Under the pieces are notes generated by a model, which ran no database searches, was not told the DNA's origin, and saw only the letters and a list, made by a program, of their open reading frames with translations. Both the position numbers and the translations under genes were made by a program. From assembly GCA_947259395.1 (NCBI GenBank), contig CAMYMN010000005.1, positions 1,494 through 65,493 of the forward strand: 64,000 nt of DNA, in the 5' to 3' direction. The first letter of the stretch is position 1. Each line of letters opens with the position of its first letter. Below, in pieces: positions 2,983 to 50,659 of the stretch. Source of the stretch: an uncultured Gammaproteobacteria bacterium. GTDB lineage: Bacteria > Pseudomonadota > Gammaproteobacteria > Arenicellales > JAANXG01.

Positions 2983-3696
2983 CTATGCATTTACCAAGAA
3001 GCGATCCAAGAACTCCCGGGTTCTCGTCCACGAGGCCGCTGCGACATCCTTACGATAGCGCTCGGCACTGAGAAAGTTCATGAACGCATGACCGGCACCG
3101 GCATAGGAATAAAACTCGTGGCGCTTGTGGTGGCGGGTGAGTTCGTCGTCTAGTAGACGCATATCATCCGGTGAAGGATTCGTGTCCTCGGCACCGAAGT
3201 GAAACATCAGTGGGCACCGGATCTCGCCGGTCTGGGCAAACGGCGCAGCGACATCCCGGCCCCACGGGACCATGATGTTACCGCCGTAATAGGCGACCGC
3301 GGCCCGAAAATGGGGATTCACCGCGGCCATGAGATACACCACACGGCCTCCCATACAAAAACCAATAATGCCAAGCTGCGCGCTTCGGACTGCCGCATGC
3401 CGCTGTAGGAAATCCACACTGGCGTTCACATCCGCAATAATTTCTCGATCATCGAGCTGCTTTCGCTTGTCGACGCCGTTCATCATCGGATCGAGACGAT
3501 GATACAAATCCGGGGCCACCGCCGCGAAACCGGCCTCCGTCAAACGATGCACCATGGCATGCACGAACCCGTCCACACCAGGCGCGTGTTGAATCACCAC
3601 AATCCCGGGAAATGGTCCATCCCCCTCCGGTATGGCGAGGTAAAGCGCCATGCCGTGGTTATCCACATCAATCGTCATGGTTGCGGCTTGCATCAA
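2983..3696 (-). CDS. Dienelactone hydrolase family protein
   Basis: GFCMGG nucleophile elbow (G-x-C-x-G), alpha/beta-hydrolase layout, and a C-terminal AGHAF histidine motif typical of DLH-family enzymes. Confidence 0.9.
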   Translation of the reverse strand: MMQAATMTIDVDNHGMALYLAIPEGDGPFPGIVVIQHAPGVDGFVHAMVHRLTEAGFAAVAPDLYHRLDPMMNGVDKRKQLDDREIIADVNASVDFLQRHAAVRSAQLGIIGFCMGGRVVYLMAAVNPHFRAAVAYYGGNIMVPWGRDVAAPFAQTGEIRCPLMFHFGAEDTNPSPDDMRLLDDELTRHHKRHEFYSYAGAGHAFMNFLSAERYRKDVAAASWTRTREFLDRFLVNA

Positions 3697-3856: not shown

Positions 3857-4801
3857 TTGAATACCGTTATTAATATCGCCGGTCCCATCTTTGGCATCGG
3901 TCTGTTGGGTTATGTTGCCGCCCGGCGGGGCTGGTTTTCGGCCAAAGCCGCCGAAGGGCTGGCGCTCTTTGTTTTTGATTGGGCGGTACCGATCATGCTG
4001 GTGCGGGTGTTCGCCTCCGCCCCTCTGCCGGAGAGTTTCCCGTGGAAACTATTGGCCGCCTTCTATGTGCCGGCCTGCTTTTTTTACGCGTTGGGCATGT
4101 TTGTCGCCAACAGATACTTCCAACGCCACTACCTCGATCAAGTTATCACTGGCTTTGCCTATACGTTTGGAAACTCGGTATTGCTTGGCTTACCGTTGAT
4201 ACTGCTGACGTTCGGTGAGGCGGGCACGGTTCCGTTTTTCATCTTGTTGTCTTTGCATGGATTATCGTATTTGTCCGCAACAACCATCTTGATGGAATTG
4301 GGCCGCAACCGCGCACAATCGATTACCAAGCTGATCTCCGGGACCGTGAAGGGATTCATCAGCAATCCGATCATCCTTGGCCTGATTACCGGCCTGATAC
4401 TCAATCAACTACAGATCACGCTCCCCGGCCCACTCGACAAGATCGCCGAATATATGCAAATGGCGGTCATGCCCTGCGCACTATTTTCGCTGGGTGCCGC
4501 ATTGAATGCATATGGCATCGTGGGTCAGTTGAGCCAATCCGTGGTTGCGGTTTTGGTCAAAAACATCGCTTTTCCCGCGCTCGTGTGGGTGCTGTCGGTG
4601 TATGTACTCGAACTGCCGACGGTGTGGGCGATGATCGCAACACTGCTGGCGGCGCAACCTGCCGGCATAAATATCTATTTGTTTGCACAGCGCTATCAGG
4701 CCGCCCAAGCCTTGGCAACCACCACGGTTTTTCTGTCTAACGTGGTGGGCATCGCGACGCTCACGGTGTTACTTTTGATATTCGAAAAGATTGGTTGGTA
4801 G
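3857..4801 (+). CDS. AEC (auxin efflux carrier) family permease
   Basis: TTG start. About 10 predicted TM helices with a two-half layout. The N-terminus MNTVINIAGPIFGIGLLGY and overall composition match the AEC/membrane transport protein family. Confidence 0.8.
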   Translation: MNTVINIAGPIFGIGLLGYVAARRGWFSAKAAEGLALFVFDWAVPIMLVRVFASAPLPESFPWKLLAAFYVPACFFYALGMFVANRYFQRHYLDQVITGFAYTFGNSVLLGLPLILLTFGEAGTVPFFILLSLHGLSYLSATTILMELGRNRAQSITKLISGTVKGFISNPIILGLITGLILNQLQITLPGPLDKIAEYMQMAVMPCALFSLGAALNAYGIVGQLSQSVVAVLVKNIAFPALVWVLSVYVLELPTVWAMIATLLAAQPAGINIYLFAQRYQAAQALATTTVFLSNVVGIATLTVLLLIFEKIGW

Positions 4802-32001: not shown

Positions 32002-33306
32002 TTAGCCCACACCTTTTTTCTGCGTCTTGAACACACGTTCTGACTGGATGATTAGAAAACTAATTGCAATCGCAGCGATCAAAATCGCCGCCGCAGTGAT
32101 GACGTTGCTCAAAAGCTCCGGGGCCAACAGCAACGTCACCCCCAGCCCGAGCATCATGAGACCCGATACCAACTTCAGGATTCTTCCTCCTCTCTCACCG
32201 AGCTTCCTTGATCCCAACGTCAGGCTGAAGACAACAACCATGATTGCGAGCGGAGTTATGTAAATGAGGTTATAAACTAACAAATAAAGATAATAAGTTT
32301 CCGGGGTCAAGTCATTTAAAGTGAGCGCGCGCGTGTAGATCATTGGAAAACCGGCGGTGCACAATAATTCATAGGTATTGGCGGCAATAGCCAGGGTTAC
32401 GGTGCCCACTAACATCGGCGCTATGCTCCGGGCTTGTGTCAAATCCCGTATGCGCTTGAATAAGCCGGGTTTGGCAGCCTCCGGAATCGTCAGCGAAACG
32501 CCCCTTTGAAACCAGAAATAATCTTTTATGTTCACGACTGCCATTGACAAGGCGATAAGGCCGGCAACGGTTGTTATGACGCGTAGTTCCCCGATCCACA
32601 GGAACACATTCAACCATGCAGCCATGAAGGCAAAATAGATCAGCCCTGAAAATAAAACGAAAGTACCGCCGATGAACAGCATCCGCGATCGGCTCTTGGC
32701 ATGTACCAGCAAGCTCAACAAAAACAGTAACACGAAAAATGCGCAAGGATTGAAGGCGTCCATCCCGGCGATAACCAGTGTCAAGACGGGCAAAGACAAG
32801 CCGGTGATATCGATGTCACCGAAAAAAGGTGCATGAATCGAACTTGGATGTTCCACAGTAGGCGCCAACCGTCCACCGTTCAATAACTTCTGCGCATGGG
32901 CCGACCGGCATTGCTTTAACGTGCGAATCAAGGCCGCGCCCGTGGTCTCCTCATTACCATAGCCAGTCATAAGTGTTTTACAAAAGATAAATCCCGGCAC
33001 CGATGAGACCTCTGTTCCCAAGTATTTTGCCAGCGCCACATAGAGCTGAACGTTATCGCGATGTTTGGTCAGCTCGTAACTGTGAACCGCAAGCCACGGA
33101 AACTTTTTCGGCAGCGCTTCAACAAACGGCTGCGCACGCACGCAGTGCGGACAGCTAAGCGACCAGAAAAAATGTAAATGGATCACGACTTGTTGCTGCT
33201 CATTGAATGTATACCAGAATGAATCATCAAAAGTTTGACTGGACTGTACCGATCCCGGCAAAGACGATAACGCGGTGATAAAGAAAAGAGTCGTCCAAAA
33301 TCTCAT
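32002..33306 (-). CDS. Fusion of a secreted thioredoxin-fold domain (CPHC) with a polytopic membrane domain (DsbD/CcdA-like suspected)
   Basis: Signal peptide. FFWSLSCPHCVRAQPFVE is a thioredoxin-type CxxC. The membrane part begins AGMDAFNPCAFFVLLFLLSLL and has at least 6 further helices. Confidence 0.65.
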   Translation of the reverse strand: MRFWTTLFFITALSSLPGSVQSSQTFDDSFWYTFNEQQQVVIHLHFFWSLSCPHCVRAQPFVEALPKKFPWLAVHSYELTKHRDNVQLYVALAKYLGTEVSSVPGFIFCKTLMTGYGNEETTGAALIRTLKQCRSAHAQKLLNGGRLAPTVEHPSSIHAPFFGDIDITGLSLPVLTLVIAGMDAFNPCAFFVLLFLLSLLVHAKSRSRMLFIGGTFVLFSGLIYFAFMAAWLNVFLWIGELRVITTVAGLIALSMAVVNIKDYFWFQRGVSLTIPEAAKPGLFKRIRDLTQARSIAPMLVGTVTLAIAANTYELLCTAGFPMIYTRALTLNDLTPETYYLYLLVYNLIYITPLAIMVVVFSLTLGSRKLGERGGRILKLVSGLMMLGLGVTLLLAPELLSNVITAAAILIAAIAISFLIIQSERVFKTQKKGVG

Positions 33307-33626: not shown

Positions 33627-33992
33627 ATGCAGCCGCAGATCCGACGCTTTAACGATCACACCTCTCCCGGGGTGCGCCATTTGGTTGAGTGCGCGGAGAT
33701 CCTGCAGGTTTCCGAGGCCGATATCTTCCGCCTCGCCTACCGGCACTGGTATGAACGGGAGCTCAACGAGCCCCTGCTCAACGAACTGGTCGCCGGTTAC
33801 TTATTGCGTCAGGAACTGCCGGGTTGGGTACGCAGTTACTGCGTGGGGGTCCTCAATCTTGCCGATGTGGGACAGCTCGATCCACGCGATTTTGGCGTTG
33901 AGCGTCCCAGGATGAGGCGGTATTCCGATCATCAGGTTGCATCGCTGTTGACCTTTGGCGGTTTTATTCTCTACTGGCTTTTCTTTGCGTAA
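33627..33992 (+). CDS. Hypothetical protein with C-terminal TM helix
   Basis: An internal ATG at 33627 (MQPQIRRFNDHTSPG...) is the most plausible start. C-terminal hydrophobic LLTFGGFILYWLFFA. No motif recognised. Confidence 0.4.
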   Translation: MQPQIRRFNDHTSPGVRHLVECAEILQVSEADIFRLAYRHWYERELNEPLLNELVAGYLLRQELPGWVRSYCVGVLNLADVGQLDPRDFGVERPRMRRYSDHQVASLLTFGGFILYWLFFA

Positions 33993-34083: not shown

Positions 34084-34317
34084 TTAATCTTCGTTTTCGT
34101 TATTGGATTTTCCGCGCTCACCGGGGAAGTGTTCTATCCGGCGTTCGGTACCGTTAGGGATTGTGCGTTCACCGTCGTCCCACTGGTCGTGGGTCCGGTG
34201 GGAGCCGCAGCATCTCATTCGCCCTTTGAAGCCAGACAACATGCAAAACAGCATCATACCGATACATACCAGCGGGAAGATCCACCAGAGTTCAAGGTAT
34301 TCAATTCCAAGGTTCAT
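34084..34317 (-). CDS. Small membrane protein with a CC pair (77 aa)
   Basis: Strong AGGAGG lies 7 nt before the ATG at 34317. TM helix LELWWIFPLVCIGMMLFCMLSGF, then RMRCCGSH. It lies 53 bp downstream of the AhpD-like gene on the same strand. Confidence 0.6.
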   Translation of the reverse strand: MNLGIEYLELWWIFPLVCIGMMLFCMLSGFKGRMRCCGSHRTHDQWDDGERTIPNGTERRIEHFPGERGKSNNENED

Positions 34318-34373
34318 CACTTACCTCCTTATTCAAATATCTTTTCAATGGTTGTCAGCATCAGAACGACACA

Positions 34374-34862
34374 TCAACCGCAAATTCCGGCTGCTGCTTG
34401 GCGCTGTGGCTGGACCTGTTGAATCTCGTTGCCCGTTTTGACGATCTTCTCCACATGGCTCGCCGCCTTGGCCTTGATAAGCCGTGCGAGCCGTACCACC
34501 GCCTGCAGCTCATCGTCAGTAATCCCGATCGTCGCGGCCACAGCCCGGTGCTTTGCCAAATTAGTCGTGCAGTTCACGGCAAATGCCGCACCGACAGACA
34601 CCAGTTCGGTGAGCCGACGGGTCTTACCGTCGCTGCGCTCATTAACGCCGTGGGCGACGTCGAGTTCACCGAGGCCATAGCTTTCCATGACTTGTTGCGC
34701 GCTCGCACGCACGCTAATGGCATCGGCAATAGCCCGCTGGATTTCAATTTCAGTGGCCTTGGCCTTGCGTACTGCCTTGAGGTGATAGTCTGTGCATGGC
34801 TTGCAACCGGCCACCACTGAAATTGCCACTGCGACCAGCTCTTTTTCCTTTAATGTCATCAT
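34374..34862 (-). CDS. Carboxymuconolactone decarboxylase / AhpD-like family protein
   Basis: AAGGAG lies 9 nt before the ATG at 34862. AhpD-core CxxC motif: ELVAVAISVVAGCKPCTDYHLKA. Confidence 0.85.
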   Translation of the reverse strand: MMTLKEKELVAVAISVVAGCKPCTDYHLKAVRKAKATEIEIQRAIADAISVRASAQQVMESYGLGELDVAHGVNERSDGKTRRLTELVSVGAAFAVNCTTNLAKHRAVAATIGITDDELQAVVRLARLIKAKAASHVEKIVKTGNEIQQVQPQRQAAAGICG

Positions 34863-34918
34863 CGTCTTCAACTCCTTGGTTGTCTTCGAGGATTCCAATA
34901 ACTTTCTTTGTCCTTACC

Positions 34919-34949
34919 TCTTAGACGACGCCGCAACCCAAAGCGTTAC
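34919..34949 (-). promoter_or_regulatory. ECF-type promoter-like motif GTAAC-N17-CGTCTAAGA reading toward the AhpD-like gene
   Basis: The plus strand reads TCTTAGACG (34919-34927), a 17-nt spacer, then GTTAC (34945-34949). On the minus strand this is GTAAC-N17-CGTCTAAGA, identical in both boxes to the motif at 34980-35010. Confidence 0.5.
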
Positions 34950-34979
34950 ATGGTGCACGTTCCTGCATTCGGTTTTGCC

Positions 34980-35010
34980 GTAACACTTTTATGGTCAAGT
35001 TCGTCTAAGA
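34980..35010 (+). promoter_or_regulatory. ECF-type promoter-like motif GTAAC-N17-CGTCTAAGA reading toward the Cys-rich peptide / ECF sigma operon
   Basis: GTAAC (34980-34984), a 17-nt spacer, then CGTCTAAGA (35002-35010), about 45 nt upstream of the peptide start codon. Confidence 0.5.
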
Positions 35011-35053
35011 ATCGCAACGTAAACGCCTCAATGACACAGTAAGGAGTATGGTT

Positions 35054-35248
35054 ATGACGACGAAAACTACTCAAGACCTCGGCCGAAGTGCGAAGCCGGA
35101 CCAGGCATCGATTTCAACACCAGAAGAAATCACTGAGACGATGGAAGGATGCTGTTGCGGTCCGATGATGAAACAGATGATGGAAGCCTGCCTGGATAAA
35201 GCCGAGAAGGTTAAAGAGAAGGAAAAAAAAGAGTCCGCCTGTTGTTGA
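35054..35248 (+). CDS. Cys/Met-rich micro-protein (64 aa; 66 aa if the ATG at 35048 is used)
   Basis: TAAGGAG lies 8 nt before the ATG at 35054. Sequence: ...EEITETMEGCCCGPMMKQMMEACLDKAEKVKEKEKKESACC. It ends 42-93 nt before the ECF sigma gene. Confidence 0.55.
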   Translation: MTTKTTQDLGRSAKPDQASISTPEEITETMEGCCCGPMMKQMMEACLDKAEKVKEKEKKESACC

Positions 35249-35341
35249 CTCGCATCAACCGGCCTCGCGCATTGTCCCCCTGACACCGCCATGATAGCCT
35301 GCTTACATAGCGCCACACCTTTGCCGACAACAACAAATTCC

Positions 35342-35920
35342 ATGACTAAAACTACAGCCGAAACGCTGGCCGAGCACCGAGATGCTGTACGGGGTTTCGT
35401 GCTGGGACTTATCGGCGACGAGGCCTTGGCCGAGGATCTGACACAAGAGACCTATGTGCGTGTCCAGCGCGCGGCCGGCTCGTACCGCGGCGAGGCCAAT
35501 GAGCGCACTTGGTTGTGCGCCATTGCCCTAAATTTAGTCCGCGATCACTTCCGCGCTGTCAAACGTGTCCCAGAGTCGAGCTTAGATACCGAAACCAGGC
35601 ACGCGATGATAAATAGTAGTGAGGACGTAGAATTGAGCGCACTCAAGACAGAAATGTCGAGTTGCATCGGTGCCTATCTGACTCAGTTGCCACGTTCTCA
35701 GTACGAAGTGGTGGCGCTCCACGATATGGCCGGCCTCACCCACAAGGAGATTGCCGCCCAGCTCGATATCTCGGTGGCGAATGCACGGGTACTTCTGCAT
35801 CGAGGACGCGCCGCGTTACGGAAGATTTTGGAGGAGCATTGCGTGCTGTCATTGGACAGTGACACCATACCCTGCGAACGCCGGCCTACCTCACAAACAA
35901 CGAGGTCAGGCACCAAATAA
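35342..35920 (+). CDS. ECF-subfamily sigma-70 factor
   Basis: Region 2 (ALAEDLTQETYVRVQRA ... ERTWLCAIALNLVRDHFR) and region 4 HTH (YEVVALHDMAGLTHKEIAAQLDISVANARVLLHRGRAALRK). An alternative upstream ATG is at 35291. Confidence 0.85.
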   Translation: MTKTTAETLAEHRDAVRGFVLGLIGDEALAEDLTQETYVRVQRAAGSYRGEANERTWLCAIALNLVRDHFRAVKRVPESSLDTETRHAMINSSEDVELSALKTEMSSCIGAYLTQLPRSQYEVVALHDMAGLTHKEIAAQLDISVANARVLLHRGRAALRKILEEHCVLSLDSDTIPCERRPTSQTTRSGTK

Positions 35921-36036: not shown

Positions 36037-37251
36037 TCACTGCTGCAGAACCTGTAGCACCCGATCGATATCTTTCTCGGTGTGATTCGCGCACACCTGC
36101 AGCCTGATCTCCTCTTCCCCTTTTGGGACCACCGGGTAATTAAGGCCGGTAACGAGTATGTCGTTGTCGAACAGATGCTGCACCAACGCCGCGGTCTTGG
36201 CCGTGTCGCGAACCAACACCGGCACAATCGGATGTTCTCCACGGATGGTTTCTAACCCCAAGGCCTCGAGCCCGGCCCGCAATCTGGCGGCGAGACTGCG
36301 TGCTTTGTCCAGCAACTTACGCCCCTGTGAACCGGCGAGGATATCCAACGCTTCCGCGGCGGCAGCGGCCTCGGCCGCAGTAATCGGATTCGAGTAGATA
36401 TAAAACGGCGCCGTCTCCCGCAGATAGTCAATCGCCGTCCCTGTTGACACCACGTAACCCCCATTCACACCCAATGCCTTGCCCAAGGTGGCGATCAGCA
36501 GGTCCGCCCGGGCATGGGTGTATTCTTCCGTCCCGCGCCCACTTTGGCCAAACGCGCCAACGCCGTGGGAGTCATCGACCAGCGTGAGGATCCCCTCTTT
36601 ATACGCCTGTTCATGGCGCTCACAGATCGCCTTGATCTCGGCCAACGGCGCATGATCACCGCGCATACTGAAGATGCCGTCGGTGACCACGCACACCCGT
36701 TTGGCCTGACCGGTATTCGATGCGAGGATGTGATCCAGTTCGGACATGTCGAGATGAGCATAGACGGCCTTTTTTGTCGGGCGCGCGAGTCGTATCGCGT
36801 TAATGATGCAGTTGTGATTCAGCGCATCGCTGACCACTAAGGTGTGTTCGTCGATGAACTGCGGTAATACCCCCACCACCGTCGCGTACGCAGCGCTCAT
36901 CAGCATCGCGGCCTCGCGACCGTGAAACGCAGCCAGTTTTCGTTCCAGGTCGACATGGGGCTGATAAGTGCCGCTGATAAAGCGCACCGCCCCGGGCCCG
37001 GCGCCAAATTGTTCCGCCGCCCTGGCCTCTGCCGCGATCACGCGTTCATGCAAGGCAAGGCCCAAGTAAGAATTCGAGTTCATCCTCAGGAACGCTCGCT
37101 CTCCATAACCTTCAAGGGTATACCTGGGACCAAACCCATCTTTCCCTGGAAGCACCCCGGTAACCACATATTCCACGCCTTTGAGCGTGCCTCGGGCTTT
37201 TCGTTCGGCCAGGCTACGTCTCAACAAGGGCTCAATCTTGTCAAGCGCCAT
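36037..37251 (-). CDS. kbl: Glycine C-acetyltransferase (2-amino-3-ketobutyrate CoA ligase) type PLP-dependent acyltransferase
   Basis: Alpha-oxoamine synthase family features (NSNSYLGL, DDSHGVGAFGQSGRG, the ATLGKALG lysine motif). It lies directly downstream of the SDR-type threonine dehydrogenase. Confidence 0.85.
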   Translation of the reverse strand: MALDKIEPLLRRSLAERKARGTLKGVEYVVTGVLPGKDGFGPRYTLEGYGERAFLRMNSNSYLGLALHERVIAAEARAAEQFGAGPGAVRFISGTYQPHVDLERKLAAFHGREAAMLMSAAYATVVGVLPQFIDEHTLVVSDALNHNCIINAIRLARPTKKAVYAHLDMSELDHILASNTGQAKRVCVVTDGIFSMRGDHAPLAEIKAICERHEQAYKEGILTLVDDSHGVGAFGQSGRGTEEYTHARADLLIATLGKALGVNGGYVVSTGTAIDYLRETAPFYIYSNPITAAEAAAAAEALDILAGSQGRKLLDKARSLAARLRAGLEALGLETIRGEHPIVPVLVRDTAKTAALVQHLFDNDILVTGLNYPVVPKGEEEIRLQVCANHTEKDIDRVLQVLQQ

Positions 37252-37262
37252 GCTCTATCGAC

Positions 37263-38237
37263 TCAAGTAGCCTTTAGCTCATTTGATAGGTGTTTGATCA
37301 TATCCTCGACCATCGCCGGCAGATCAAACTTCGGCTTCCAACCCCACTCGTTTCGCGCCACGCTGTCATCCATATGCCGGGGCCATGATTCTGCGATCCC
37401 CTGGCGCACCGGATCGATTCGATAGCCGACGGTAAAATCTGGGATACGCTTTTTGATTTCTGCCGCAATATCCGCCGGAGAAAAACTCATCGCAGTGACA
37501 TTGTATCCATTACGGTGGATCAACCGCTCGCCGTCAAACTCCATTAGTCGGATTGCCGCATTGATGGCGTCCGGCATATACATCATATCTAGCCGGGTAT
37601 CGGCCTTTAAGAAGCAATCGTAATGGCCATCTCTCAATGCGGCATAAAATATCTCCACGGCATAATCGGTCGTGCCACCACCGGGTGGGGTTCTATAAGA
37701 GATCAATCCCGGATATCGCACCCCCCGGGTGTCGACGCCGAAACGCCTCTGGTAATAGCCACACAACAGCTCACCGGACACCTTGGTGATGCCATACATC
37801 GTATTTGGGTGCTGGATCGTATCCTGGGGTGTATTCTCCGCGGGCGTAAGCGGTCCAAACGCCCCGATGGAGCTGGGGAAAAACAGCGAGCAGTGCCGCA
37901 TCCGCGCTATTTCCAGCACATTGAGCAAGCCGTTGACATTGATATCCCAAGCAAGCTGCGGTTCCTCCTCAGCTACGGCGGACAGCAGCGAGGCGAGATG
38001 ATAAATCGTATCGATCCCGTGCTTGGCCACCACCGCTTCCAACACCGTGGCGTCGCGAACATCCACGCTGCAAAACGGGCCTGACTCGGCGAGCTCCGCA
38101 TCCGGCTGGCGTCGATGTCCCGCGGCAATCACATTTTGATTACCGTATTTTTTTCGCAGCACCGGCGCCAGCTCGGAACCGATCTGCCCGGTTGCACCGG
38201 TTATAAGGATCTTCTTCATCGTCGCAGCGACAGCCAC
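37263..38237 (-). CDS. tdh: L-threonine 3-dehydrogenase, NAD-dependent epimerase/SDR type
   Basis: KILITGATGQIGSELAPVLRKKYG Rossmann motif and a YGITK catalytic Y-x3-K. Pairing with kbl supports the call. The start is GTG at 38237 or ATG at 38219. Confidence 0.8.
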   Translation of the reverse strand: MAVAATMKKILITGATGQIGSELAPVLRKKYGNQNVIAAGHRRQPDAELAESGPFCSVDVRDATVLEAVVAKHGIDTIYHLASLLSAVAEEEPQLAWDINVNGLLNVLEIARMRHCSLFFPSSIGAFGPLTPAENTPQDTIQHPNTMYGITKVSGELLCGYYQRRFGVDTRGVRYPGLISYRTPPGGGTTDYAVEIFYAALRDGHYDCFLKADTRLDMMYMPDAINAAIRLMEFDGERLIHRNGYNVTAMSFSPADIAAEIKKRIPDFTVGYRIDPVRQGIAESWPRHMDDSVARNEWGWKPKFDLPAMVEDMIKHLSNELKAT

Positions 38238-50542: not shown

Positions 50543-50659
50543 ATGGTGGATTATCGGCCTGAAGATCACTTCGCATCTGGACGGTATGTTGCGGGTAGTT
50601 GGTTACTCGTTGTAGTAGTTTTTACCGGCTTGTTCGTAATATCGTTATCTATGGTCTGA
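50543..50659 (+). CDS. Candidate 38-aa single-TM micro-protein (absent from the ORF track)
   Basis: GGAGG (50533-50537) lies 5 nt before the ATG at 50543. The translation is MVDYRPEDHFASGRYVAGSWLLVVVVFTGLFVISLSMV, ending in TGA at 50657-50659. Confidence 0.4.
   Translation: MVDYRPEDHFASGRYVAGSWLLVVVVFTGLFVISLSMV

Follow-up and report, generated by a model that had tools for sequence, protein, structure and literature searches.

Genes and paired motifs at the sigma factor locus

We analysed a stretch of 64,000 nucleotides from an uncultured gammaproteobacterium (contig CAMYMN010000005.1; hereafter the window), focusing on an extracytoplasmic function (ECF, group 4) sigma factor gene, the AhpD-like gene divergent from it, and a pair of inverted sequence motifs lying between them. 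The sigma factor, a protein of 192 aa encoded on the plus strand (35342..35920), matches the Pfam models Sigma70_r2 (E 5.6e-14), Sigma70_r4_2 (E 2.8e-13) and Sigma70_ECF, and scores 81.6 bits against a cutoff of 42.9 with the NCBIfam sigma70-ECF superfamily model, which places it in the ECF family. The divergent gene on the minus strand (34374..34862) encodes a 162-aa AhpD-like protein of the carboxymuconolactone decarboxylase (CMD) family, assigned through PF02627 (E 2.9e-18) and the NCBIfam model ahpD_dom (43.3 bits, cutoff 27.8). Its motif C20-K-P-C23-T-D-Y-H27 (CxxCxxxH) is invariant in a family alignment of 18 homologues, as is a further cysteine, C98, and a C-terminal-proximal cysteine is usual among the homologues.

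Each of these genes is accompanied by a small one. The first gene of the sigma operon encodes a Met/Cys-rich peptide of 64 aa (35054..35248, plus strand) with the core MMExCxCGPMMxxMMxxC and a CC pair at its C-terminus; it was recognised from its open reading frame (ORF), its ribosome-binding site and its orthologues, and has neither a signal peptide nor a transmembrane segment. The real start is probably the ATG at 35054, because this codon is preceded by a properly spaced AAGGAG and the same start is used in the orthologues. Counted from the CMD start codon at 34862, the intergenic gap is 191 bp with the ATG at 35054, and 185 bp if the peptide ORF is taken to begin at its first ATG, 35048. 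On the minus strand, 53 nt downstream of the CMD gene, an ORF at 34084..34320 encodes a membrane protein of 78 aa (77 from the ATG) with a CC pair, containing WWIFPLVCIGMMLFCMLSGFKGRMRCCGSH and matching no Pfam family; judging solely from the 53-nt gap, it is probably co-transcribed with the CMD gene. The sequence-only reading that drew attention to this locus had given the 185-bp distance and had described the four flanking genes in the same terms (AhpD-like CxxC protein, CC membrane protein, Cys-rich peptide, ECF sigma factor), and both the ORFs and the domain searches agree with it.

The gap contains the pattern GTAAC-N17-CGTCTAAGA once on each strand, at 34919-34949 (minus) and 34980-35010 (plus). 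The minus copy, read from 34949 to 34919, is GTAAC GCTTTGGGTTGCGGCGT CGTCTAAGA, and the plus copy, read from 34980 to 35010, is GTAAC ACTTTTATGGTCAAGTT CGTCTAAGA, each with a spacer of exactly 17 nt; 11 of the 17 spacer positions differ between the two. The stretch identical in both −10 parts extends over 10 nt, TCGTCTAAGA, and was returned by a repeat finder as a perfect 10-nt inverted repeat (I3, TCTTAGACGA / TCGTCTAAGA, 34919-34928 / 35001-35010). Both copies face outward, each toward its own gene, in exact agreement with the earlier description, and their −35 ends are separated by 30 bp. Written as TGTAAC-N17-CGTCTAA, the motif lies 44 nt 5' of the peptide-sigma operon and 57 nt 5' of the CMD gene, and no sigma-70-like promoter was detected in the gap between the CMD and peptide genes.

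We refer to the two predicted ECF promoters as P(cmd) and P(sig). P(cmd) (34919..34950, minus strand) was identified by pattern match, a weight matrix score of 35.1 bits and a footprint across five loci, and consists of a −35 box TGTAAC at 34950-34945, a 17-nt spacer and a −10 box (T)CGTCTAAGA at 34928-34919; transcription from it is predicted to start at roughly 34913-34917, about 53 nt 5' of the CMD start codon. P(sig) (34979..35010, plus strand), identified by pattern match, a matrix score of 25.0 bits and a conserved orthologous position, consists of a −35 box cGTAAC at 34979-34984, a 17-nt spacer and the −10 box TCGTCTAAGA at 35001-35010, with a predicted start at roughly 35012-35016, about 40 nt 5' of the peptide ATG at 35054.

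When up to two mismatches were allowed, the 64-kb window yielded no matches beyond these two copies, and shuffled windows yielded a mean of 0.21 matches. Short motifs of mixed AT/GC composition can recur, and 1 of 100 shuffles did reach two matches at this tolerance, which would be compatible with a chance likeness or with a relic that has no regulatory role, for example the terminal inverted repeats of a decayed mobile element. Against this stands the expectation for exact matches, which for a pattern with 14 specified bases amounts to 3.8e-4 per window from base composition, set beside two exact matches within 92 bp; there are also no transposase genes, no extended identity of the arms, and the divergent spacers noted above. 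The comparative data presented below, in which the motif keeps its place at 47-91% sigma identity while the intergenic DNA is otherwise unalignable, effectively refute a chance or relic origin, and we assign it a negligible probability.

Conservation of the motif among relatives of the sigma factor

The comparison set comprised 21 distinct loci besides the window (143 kb) carrying close relatives of the sigma factor (47-91% identity) from Gamma-, Alpha- and Deltaproteobacteria and from Myxococcota; these clade loci, cited by L numbers where individual ones matter, come from different metagenome-assembled genomes (MAGs) and samples, and are not assembly duplicates of one sequence. The control set consisted of 161 other fetched loci (841 kb), mostly with other ECF sigma genes (no more than 39% identity). 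The bipartite motif TGTAACgnTT-N12-tCGTCnAA was present 5' of the sigma operon, of the adjoining AhpD/CMD gene or of both at 20 of the 21 other clade loci. The simpler pattern GTAAC-N17-CGTC occurred 32 times in these 21 loci versus 1.1 expected, and 7 times in the 161 control loci versus 6.4 expected, i.e. at chance level. The sequence-only reading had interpreted the repeats as promoters and had set phylogenetic footprinting as a refuting test in advance; with the motif conserved at the orthologous loci, its interpretation withstood that test.

The geometry of the motif is equally consistent. The internal spacer is 17 nt in every clade copy, and each copy aims at a start codon approximately 40-60 nt downstream, whereas twin copies lie anywhere between 13 and 83 bp apart, depending on the locus. 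The orthologous position of P(sig) is kept in L001-L005, L016-L018, L094, L095, L174, L180 and L181. Only one copy, 5' of the CMD gene, is found in the loci with a co-directional CMD→sigma arrangement (L175, L182 and L185), and only one, 5' of the peptide-sigma genes, in loci without a divergent CMD gene (L004, L005 and L016). When the five closest loci were aligned over their intergenic regions, nothing but the four boxes and the ribosome-binding sites proved invariant, and the intergenic DNA around the motifs is not conserved among clade loci.

These features also bear on the possibility that the inverted pair is an operator, at which a dimeric transcription factor would bind one long palindrome. 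On the plus strand the window copies do form an inverted repeat (TCTTAGACGA...GTTAC / GTAAC...TCGTCTAAGA), and palindromic operators are often common to divergent gene pairs. However, the half-site distance of such an operator would vary between orthologous loci over the range of 13-83 bp given above while the 17 nt within each motif stay fixed, the single copies at the six loci just named are non-palindromic, the sequence fits the ECF grammar of a −35 AAC and a −10 CGTC, and besides the sigma factor no DNA-binding regulator is conserved in the clade loci. We therefore consider an operator very improbable. Because the gap between twins varies and single copies occur in co-directional operons, the two copies are better described as independent promoters.

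A weight matrix was trained on non-window sites only, giving the consensus TGTAACgnTT-N12-tCGTCnAA. Scanned with this matrix, the window returned the twin sites at 35.1 and 25.0 bits and a runner-up at 8.8 bits; with 8.8 bits as the best non-target score, there is no further regulon member in the 64-kb window. The sole other GTAAC-N15-18-CGTC match in the window, at 50580-50606, was rejected as a regulon site, having an 18-nt spacer and being unscored by the matrix. Across 974 kb of loci, scores of 20 or above were confined to clade loci. Conservation extends beyond the search pattern to a T preceding GTAAC, a G/A and a TT following it, a T preceding CGTC and, two bases past CGTC, AA; the spacer carries essentially no information.

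Independent routes to related loci gave the same picture. Among species-representative genomes, the close sigma relatives (57-91% identity) were all from uncultured MAGs, namely Gammaproteobacteria, a Thalassospiraceae, a Myxococcales and a 'Deltaproteobacteria', and all of them carried GTAAC-N17-CGTC 5' of the sigma operon, most with a second, divergent copy. In a protein database, more than 120 clusters (90% identity) had at least 54% identity to the sigma factor, nearly all of them metagenomic; metagenome contexts were retrieved for 7 of these clusters. Reciprocal sampling, with CMD homologues picked solely by the length of the surrounding sequence, found a clade sigma gene and the motif adjoining 3 of 3. 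A contig scan with the sigma alignment was dominated by other ECF sigma genes and yielded just 2-3 clade loci.

The CMD gene adjoins the sigma gene in 17 of the 22 distinct clade loci (window included), and these two genes are the conserved core of the module. The Met/Cys-rich peptide is found at about half of the clade loci, 5' of the sigma gene in L001, L002, L004, L005, L094, L174 and L180 and in divergent form in L016; it is also rare in databases, with 3 clusters in a word search and 7 representatives among 1.8 billion proteins in a profile search. Homologues of the 78-aa membrane protein occupy the same position in L001, L002, L003 and L174, with a related form in L021, L107 and L112, a distribution amounting to a gammaproteobacterial subclade plus scattered distant relatives, the related form occurring in Desulfobacterota. 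Accordingly, of the four-member mini-regulon previously proposed, the CMD protein and the sigma factor hold as its core, whereas the peptide and the 77/78-aa membrane protein are accessory members only.

From these data it is highly probable that the twin motifs are back-to-back ECF promoters read by the sigma factor encoded 330 bp downstream, an arrangement that would combine autoregulation with a CMD output. Autoregulation is the usual case among ECF sigma factors, whose target motifs are specific to each group and can be predicted (PMC7826278). The motif has an AAC-type −35, a CGT-type −10 and a 16-17-nt spacer, lies near the sigma factor's own operon, is conserved upstream of orthologous sigma genes, and is specific to the sigma group. 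That it tracks the sigma clade also lends support to the previous suggestion that the protein encoded at 35342-35920 is the probable controller of both units, and we infer that RNA polymerase carrying this sigma factor initiates at both sites.

Several points weigh against this interpretation. The matrix was seeded with the pattern from the sequence-only reading, and its core is thus conserved by construction, leaving the flanking positions and the enrichment statistics as the only evidence independent of that pattern. P(sig) fits the family consensus less well than P(cmd) (25.0 versus 35.1 bits), its −35 box being off consensus with a C replacing the T before GTAAC. One locus, L177 (duplicate L178), is motif-free, with its sigma gene behind a glycosyltransferase gene and no CMD gene, and L179 has the motif on the CMD side only. 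We found no RNA runs containing the window, L001 or L018, the matches being low-share DNA metagenomes only. Control of the sigma factor through its cysteines, discussed below, is something we purely infer.

Lastly, co-occurrence cannot single out which sigma factor reads the motif. These could be real ECF promoters read by another ECF sigma factor, with the adjacent sigma gene a cascade target rather than autoregulated. In line with this, L003 and L005 are paralogous sigma loci with the same motif in one MAG, making cross-talk possible, and the comparison covers just 64 kb of the source genome. In addition, a −35 of the GTAAC type is used by SigD (ECF40) of mycobacteria and corynebacteria, whose promoters (GTAACA/G-N16-18-(C)GAT; PMC13537577) have a near-identical −35 and a similar spacer; GTAAC is therefore a bona fide ECF −35 element. 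SigD differs in its −10 (CGAT/GAT, compared with CGTCnAA in the window) and belongs to an unrelated family with an anti-sigma factor and a large cell-envelope regulon. Conversely, the motif follows the present clade through four or more lineages of phylum or class rank while staying at chance level in the 161 control loci, and strict linkage is what autoregulation predicts, whereas a trans-acting regulator would need to be co-inherited in every lineage. On balance, we judge a different reader to be unlikely, and retain the adjacent sigma factor as the one that very probably recognises both promoters.

The predicted switch and known ECF systems

In the switch we propose, P(sig) would drive the peptide and sigma genes, resulting in positive autoregulation, and P(cmd) would drive the gene for the AhpD-like CxxC protein and probably that of the small membrane protein behind it; an active sigma factor would thereby boost its own synthesis and turn on a small thiol-redox output. 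Three cysteines of the sigma factor are invariant in 25 aligned clade members, C108 in the linker (EMSxCIGE) and C167 and C178 in the tail (NC-x10-PCER), and the protein ends approximately 25 aa past the sigma-4 region with no additional domain. Its activity would most likely be set by these three residues, either by their oxidation or by a metal or metalloid that binds thiols, on the model of CorE-type factors. We favour control via the sigma factor's own cysteines because no anti-sigma gene is recognisable nearby: no neighbouring ORF matches anti-sigma, zf-HC2 or RskA models, and a tail-anchored protein of 121 aa, described below, has no HxxxCxxC. The Met/Cys-rich peptide was rejected as an anti-sigma factor, being missing from about half of the loci. 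In an AlphaFold2 (AF2) model the core of the sigma factor is confident and the Cys tail forms a low-confidence hairpin, with a predicted local distance difference test (pLDDT) score of about 51-57, and there is therefore no structural support for a Cys cluster; a sequence search of the PDB returned generic ECF cores only, none covering the tail.

The experimentally tested ECF41-COE module, with CMD, oxidoreductase or epimerase targets (Wecke et al. 2012, PMC3426412), offers the closest parallel in architecture. As in the window, a sigma gene adjoins a CMD-family gene with no anti-sigma gene, and a single bipartite promoter, specific to the group and with CGTC in its −10, lies 5' of the CMD gene, the sigma gene or both. 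As in the clade, the motif precedes both genes when they are divergent and only the first gene in the COE→ECF order, and the regulon is essentially that single locus. There are differences, too. The window −35 is TGTAAC(G/A) with a fixed 17-nt spacer, in place of the ECF41 TGTCACA with a spacer of 16 ± 1 nt, and the ECF41 signature TGTCACA-N16-CGTC (PMC3426412) is absent. The window sigma factor has 192 aa with a Cys tail of approximately 25 aa, and lacks the ~100-aa SnoaL-like regulatory extension of ECF41. The window CMD protein falls into a separate subfamily with two half-domains and a Cys-bearing C-terminus.

At the level of the sigma factor itself, the nearest described group is ECF238, which merges ECF24 and ECF44 and includes SigZ of Bacillus subtilis and CorE/CorE2 of Myxococcus xanthus (PMC7826278, PMC4937300, PMC3107203). 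According to the group description (PMC7826278), its members share with the window sigma factor a short, Cys-bearing tail of ~20 aa, sometimes a linker cysteine, and the lack of an anti-sigma factor; the text consulted on ECF238 makes no mention of a CMD partner. SigZ is the best NCBIfam match of the window protein, yet below both curated cutoffs (TIGR02959, 96.6 versus 168.65; NF007215, 92 versus 212). The linker carries a single cysteine, in contrast to the CxC of CorE (PMC4937300, PMC8999054), which none of the 25 aligned members has, and the tail two cysteines, compared with six in the 28-38-aa C-terminal Cys-rich domain of CorE (PMC4937300). By comparison with the published description, the window sigma factor resembles ECF238, for which the group hidden Markov models of the ECF Hub are the formal criterion. 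The logic shared with this group is likely that the sigma factor senses its signal via its own cysteines. In text searches of the literature we found no published promoter motif for ECF24 or ECF238.

On this evidence, the twin promoters are almost certainly an ordinary self-activating ECF switch of a well-known kind, predicted here for an uncharacterised sigma family. The finding confirms that reading raw sequence can pick out autoregulated ECF promoters. A widespread sigma clade with almost no cultured members thereby gains a predicted promoter, TGTAACgnTT-N12-tCGTCnAA, and a fixed AhpD-like partner, and lends itself to testing whether an ECF sigma factor may respond directly to redox or metalloid stress. 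For the Met/Cys peptide and the small CC membrane protein, both of them orphans, the locus offers a first functional handle, and the sigma factor with its promoter is an orthogonal pair such as synthetic circuits employ.

Arsenic genes, the wider family and neighbouring genes

As to the signal, it is safer to speak of generic thiol-redox sensing by way of the three cysteines. A more specific possibility, which we put forward tentatively and think improbable on present evidence, is that the clade and its wider family are anti-sigma-free sensors of thiol-reactive metalloids, arsenite above all, acting through the three cysteines. The outputs of such a sensor would, just as tentatively, comprise the AhpD-like protein as a putative disulfide reductase, the CC membrane protein, the Met/Cys peptide (CxCGPMMxxMMxxC) and, in sister lineages, ArsM. 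In line with this, three loci at 68-72% sigma identity to the window have arsM, an arsenite methyltransferase gene, immediately after the sigma gene (L003, 2963-3775; L004, 3090-3911; L005, 1030-1848), identified with NF008823 at 364 bits against a cutoff of 263. Further afield, arsR-arsM-arsC genes are divergent from a distant ECF sigma gene of the same Cys pattern (L025, 689-2403), and a gene for a Met/Cys-rich peptide lies just 5' of arsM beside an ECF sigma gene of the same Cys pattern and a ZAS-type anti-sigma gene (L100, 909-2034). Judged by NCBIfam models, the window CMD domain is closest to AhpD domains fused to ArsM-like methyltransferases. Against arsenite as the signal, the 64-kb window has no arsM gene and most clade loci are without arsenic genes; we found no paper tying ECF sigma factors to arsM or AhpD. 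If true, the metalloid-sensor interpretation would reveal a module for arsenic or thiol stress under ECF control that has so far gone unrecognised, and direct Cys-based sensing of metalloids would raise specialist interest in the switch.

Linkage to CMD genes and the Cys pattern (a C-terminal C-x10-12-C and a linker cysteine) reach relatives at 30-39% sigma identity, some of whose loci also contain GTAACCTT-N14-CGTCT. At 36-39% identity (Desulfobacterota and others), this motif precedes a small-CMD→sigma operon in L020 (2632-3552), L021 (2674-3564) and L098, and the module is therefore older than the sigma clade studied here. The two copies in L098 are at 3129-3154 and 4109-4134, the second downstream of the sigma gene, and L021 encodes a SHOCT-tailed relative of the 78-aa membrane protein. 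Genes for class III adenylate/guanylate cyclases lie beside the sigma/CMD pair, or in an operon with it, in three otherwise unrelated loci (L175, 900-3968; L183, 2461-3759; L185, 2707-3774); in L183 the cyclase gene appears to be co-transcribed with the sigma gene from the twin promoter.

Between the peptide stop and the sigma start, a block of ~35 nt (CATTGTCCnCCnnACACCGCCATGATAGCCT, window 35268-35300) has a core that is invariant in six loci (68-91% sigma identity), exceeding the conservation of the flanking DNA. An alternative in-frame ATG within it, at 35291, would give the sigma factor a 17-aa N-terminal extension, which is poorly conserved. RNA structure in this spacer was considered and rejected, the consensus fold being weak (−5.4 kcal/mol); a 6-bp long-range helix, TGTTGT/ACAACA (35240-35245 with about 35328-35333), shows one compensatory column. 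The block could act in translation control, supply an alternative start or contain an internal promoter.

Neither a tRNA gene nor an Rfam family was found at threshold in the whole 64-kb window. Beyond the small membrane protein gene, a gene at 32002-33306 (minus strand) encodes a 434-aa protein that combines a signal peptide with a thioredoxin-like CPHC domain and a membrane domain of the DsbD/CcdA type (motifs FNPCAF and CTAGFP). Pfam and NCBIfam gave no match for it and the PDB no significant one; its conservation is limited to L001 and L174, with identity down to 27% in L028. The protein may be a periplasmic transporter of thiol reductants that fits no established class. The 121-aa protein mentioned above, encoded at 33627-33992 (plus strand) convergently with the 78-aa gene, has a C-terminal transmembrane anchor and no family match; its counterparts in L001 and L174 share more than 91% identity with it, and no other fetched locus has one. 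Both genes were rejected as regulon members, having no upstream motif and being conserved no further than the two closest loci. The sigma gene is followed by genes for a class I/II aminotransferase (36037-37251, minus strand) and an NAD-dependent epimerase-family protein (37263-38237, minus strand), which from domain content alone form a putative kbl/tdh-like threonine-degradation pair and appear unrelated to the module.

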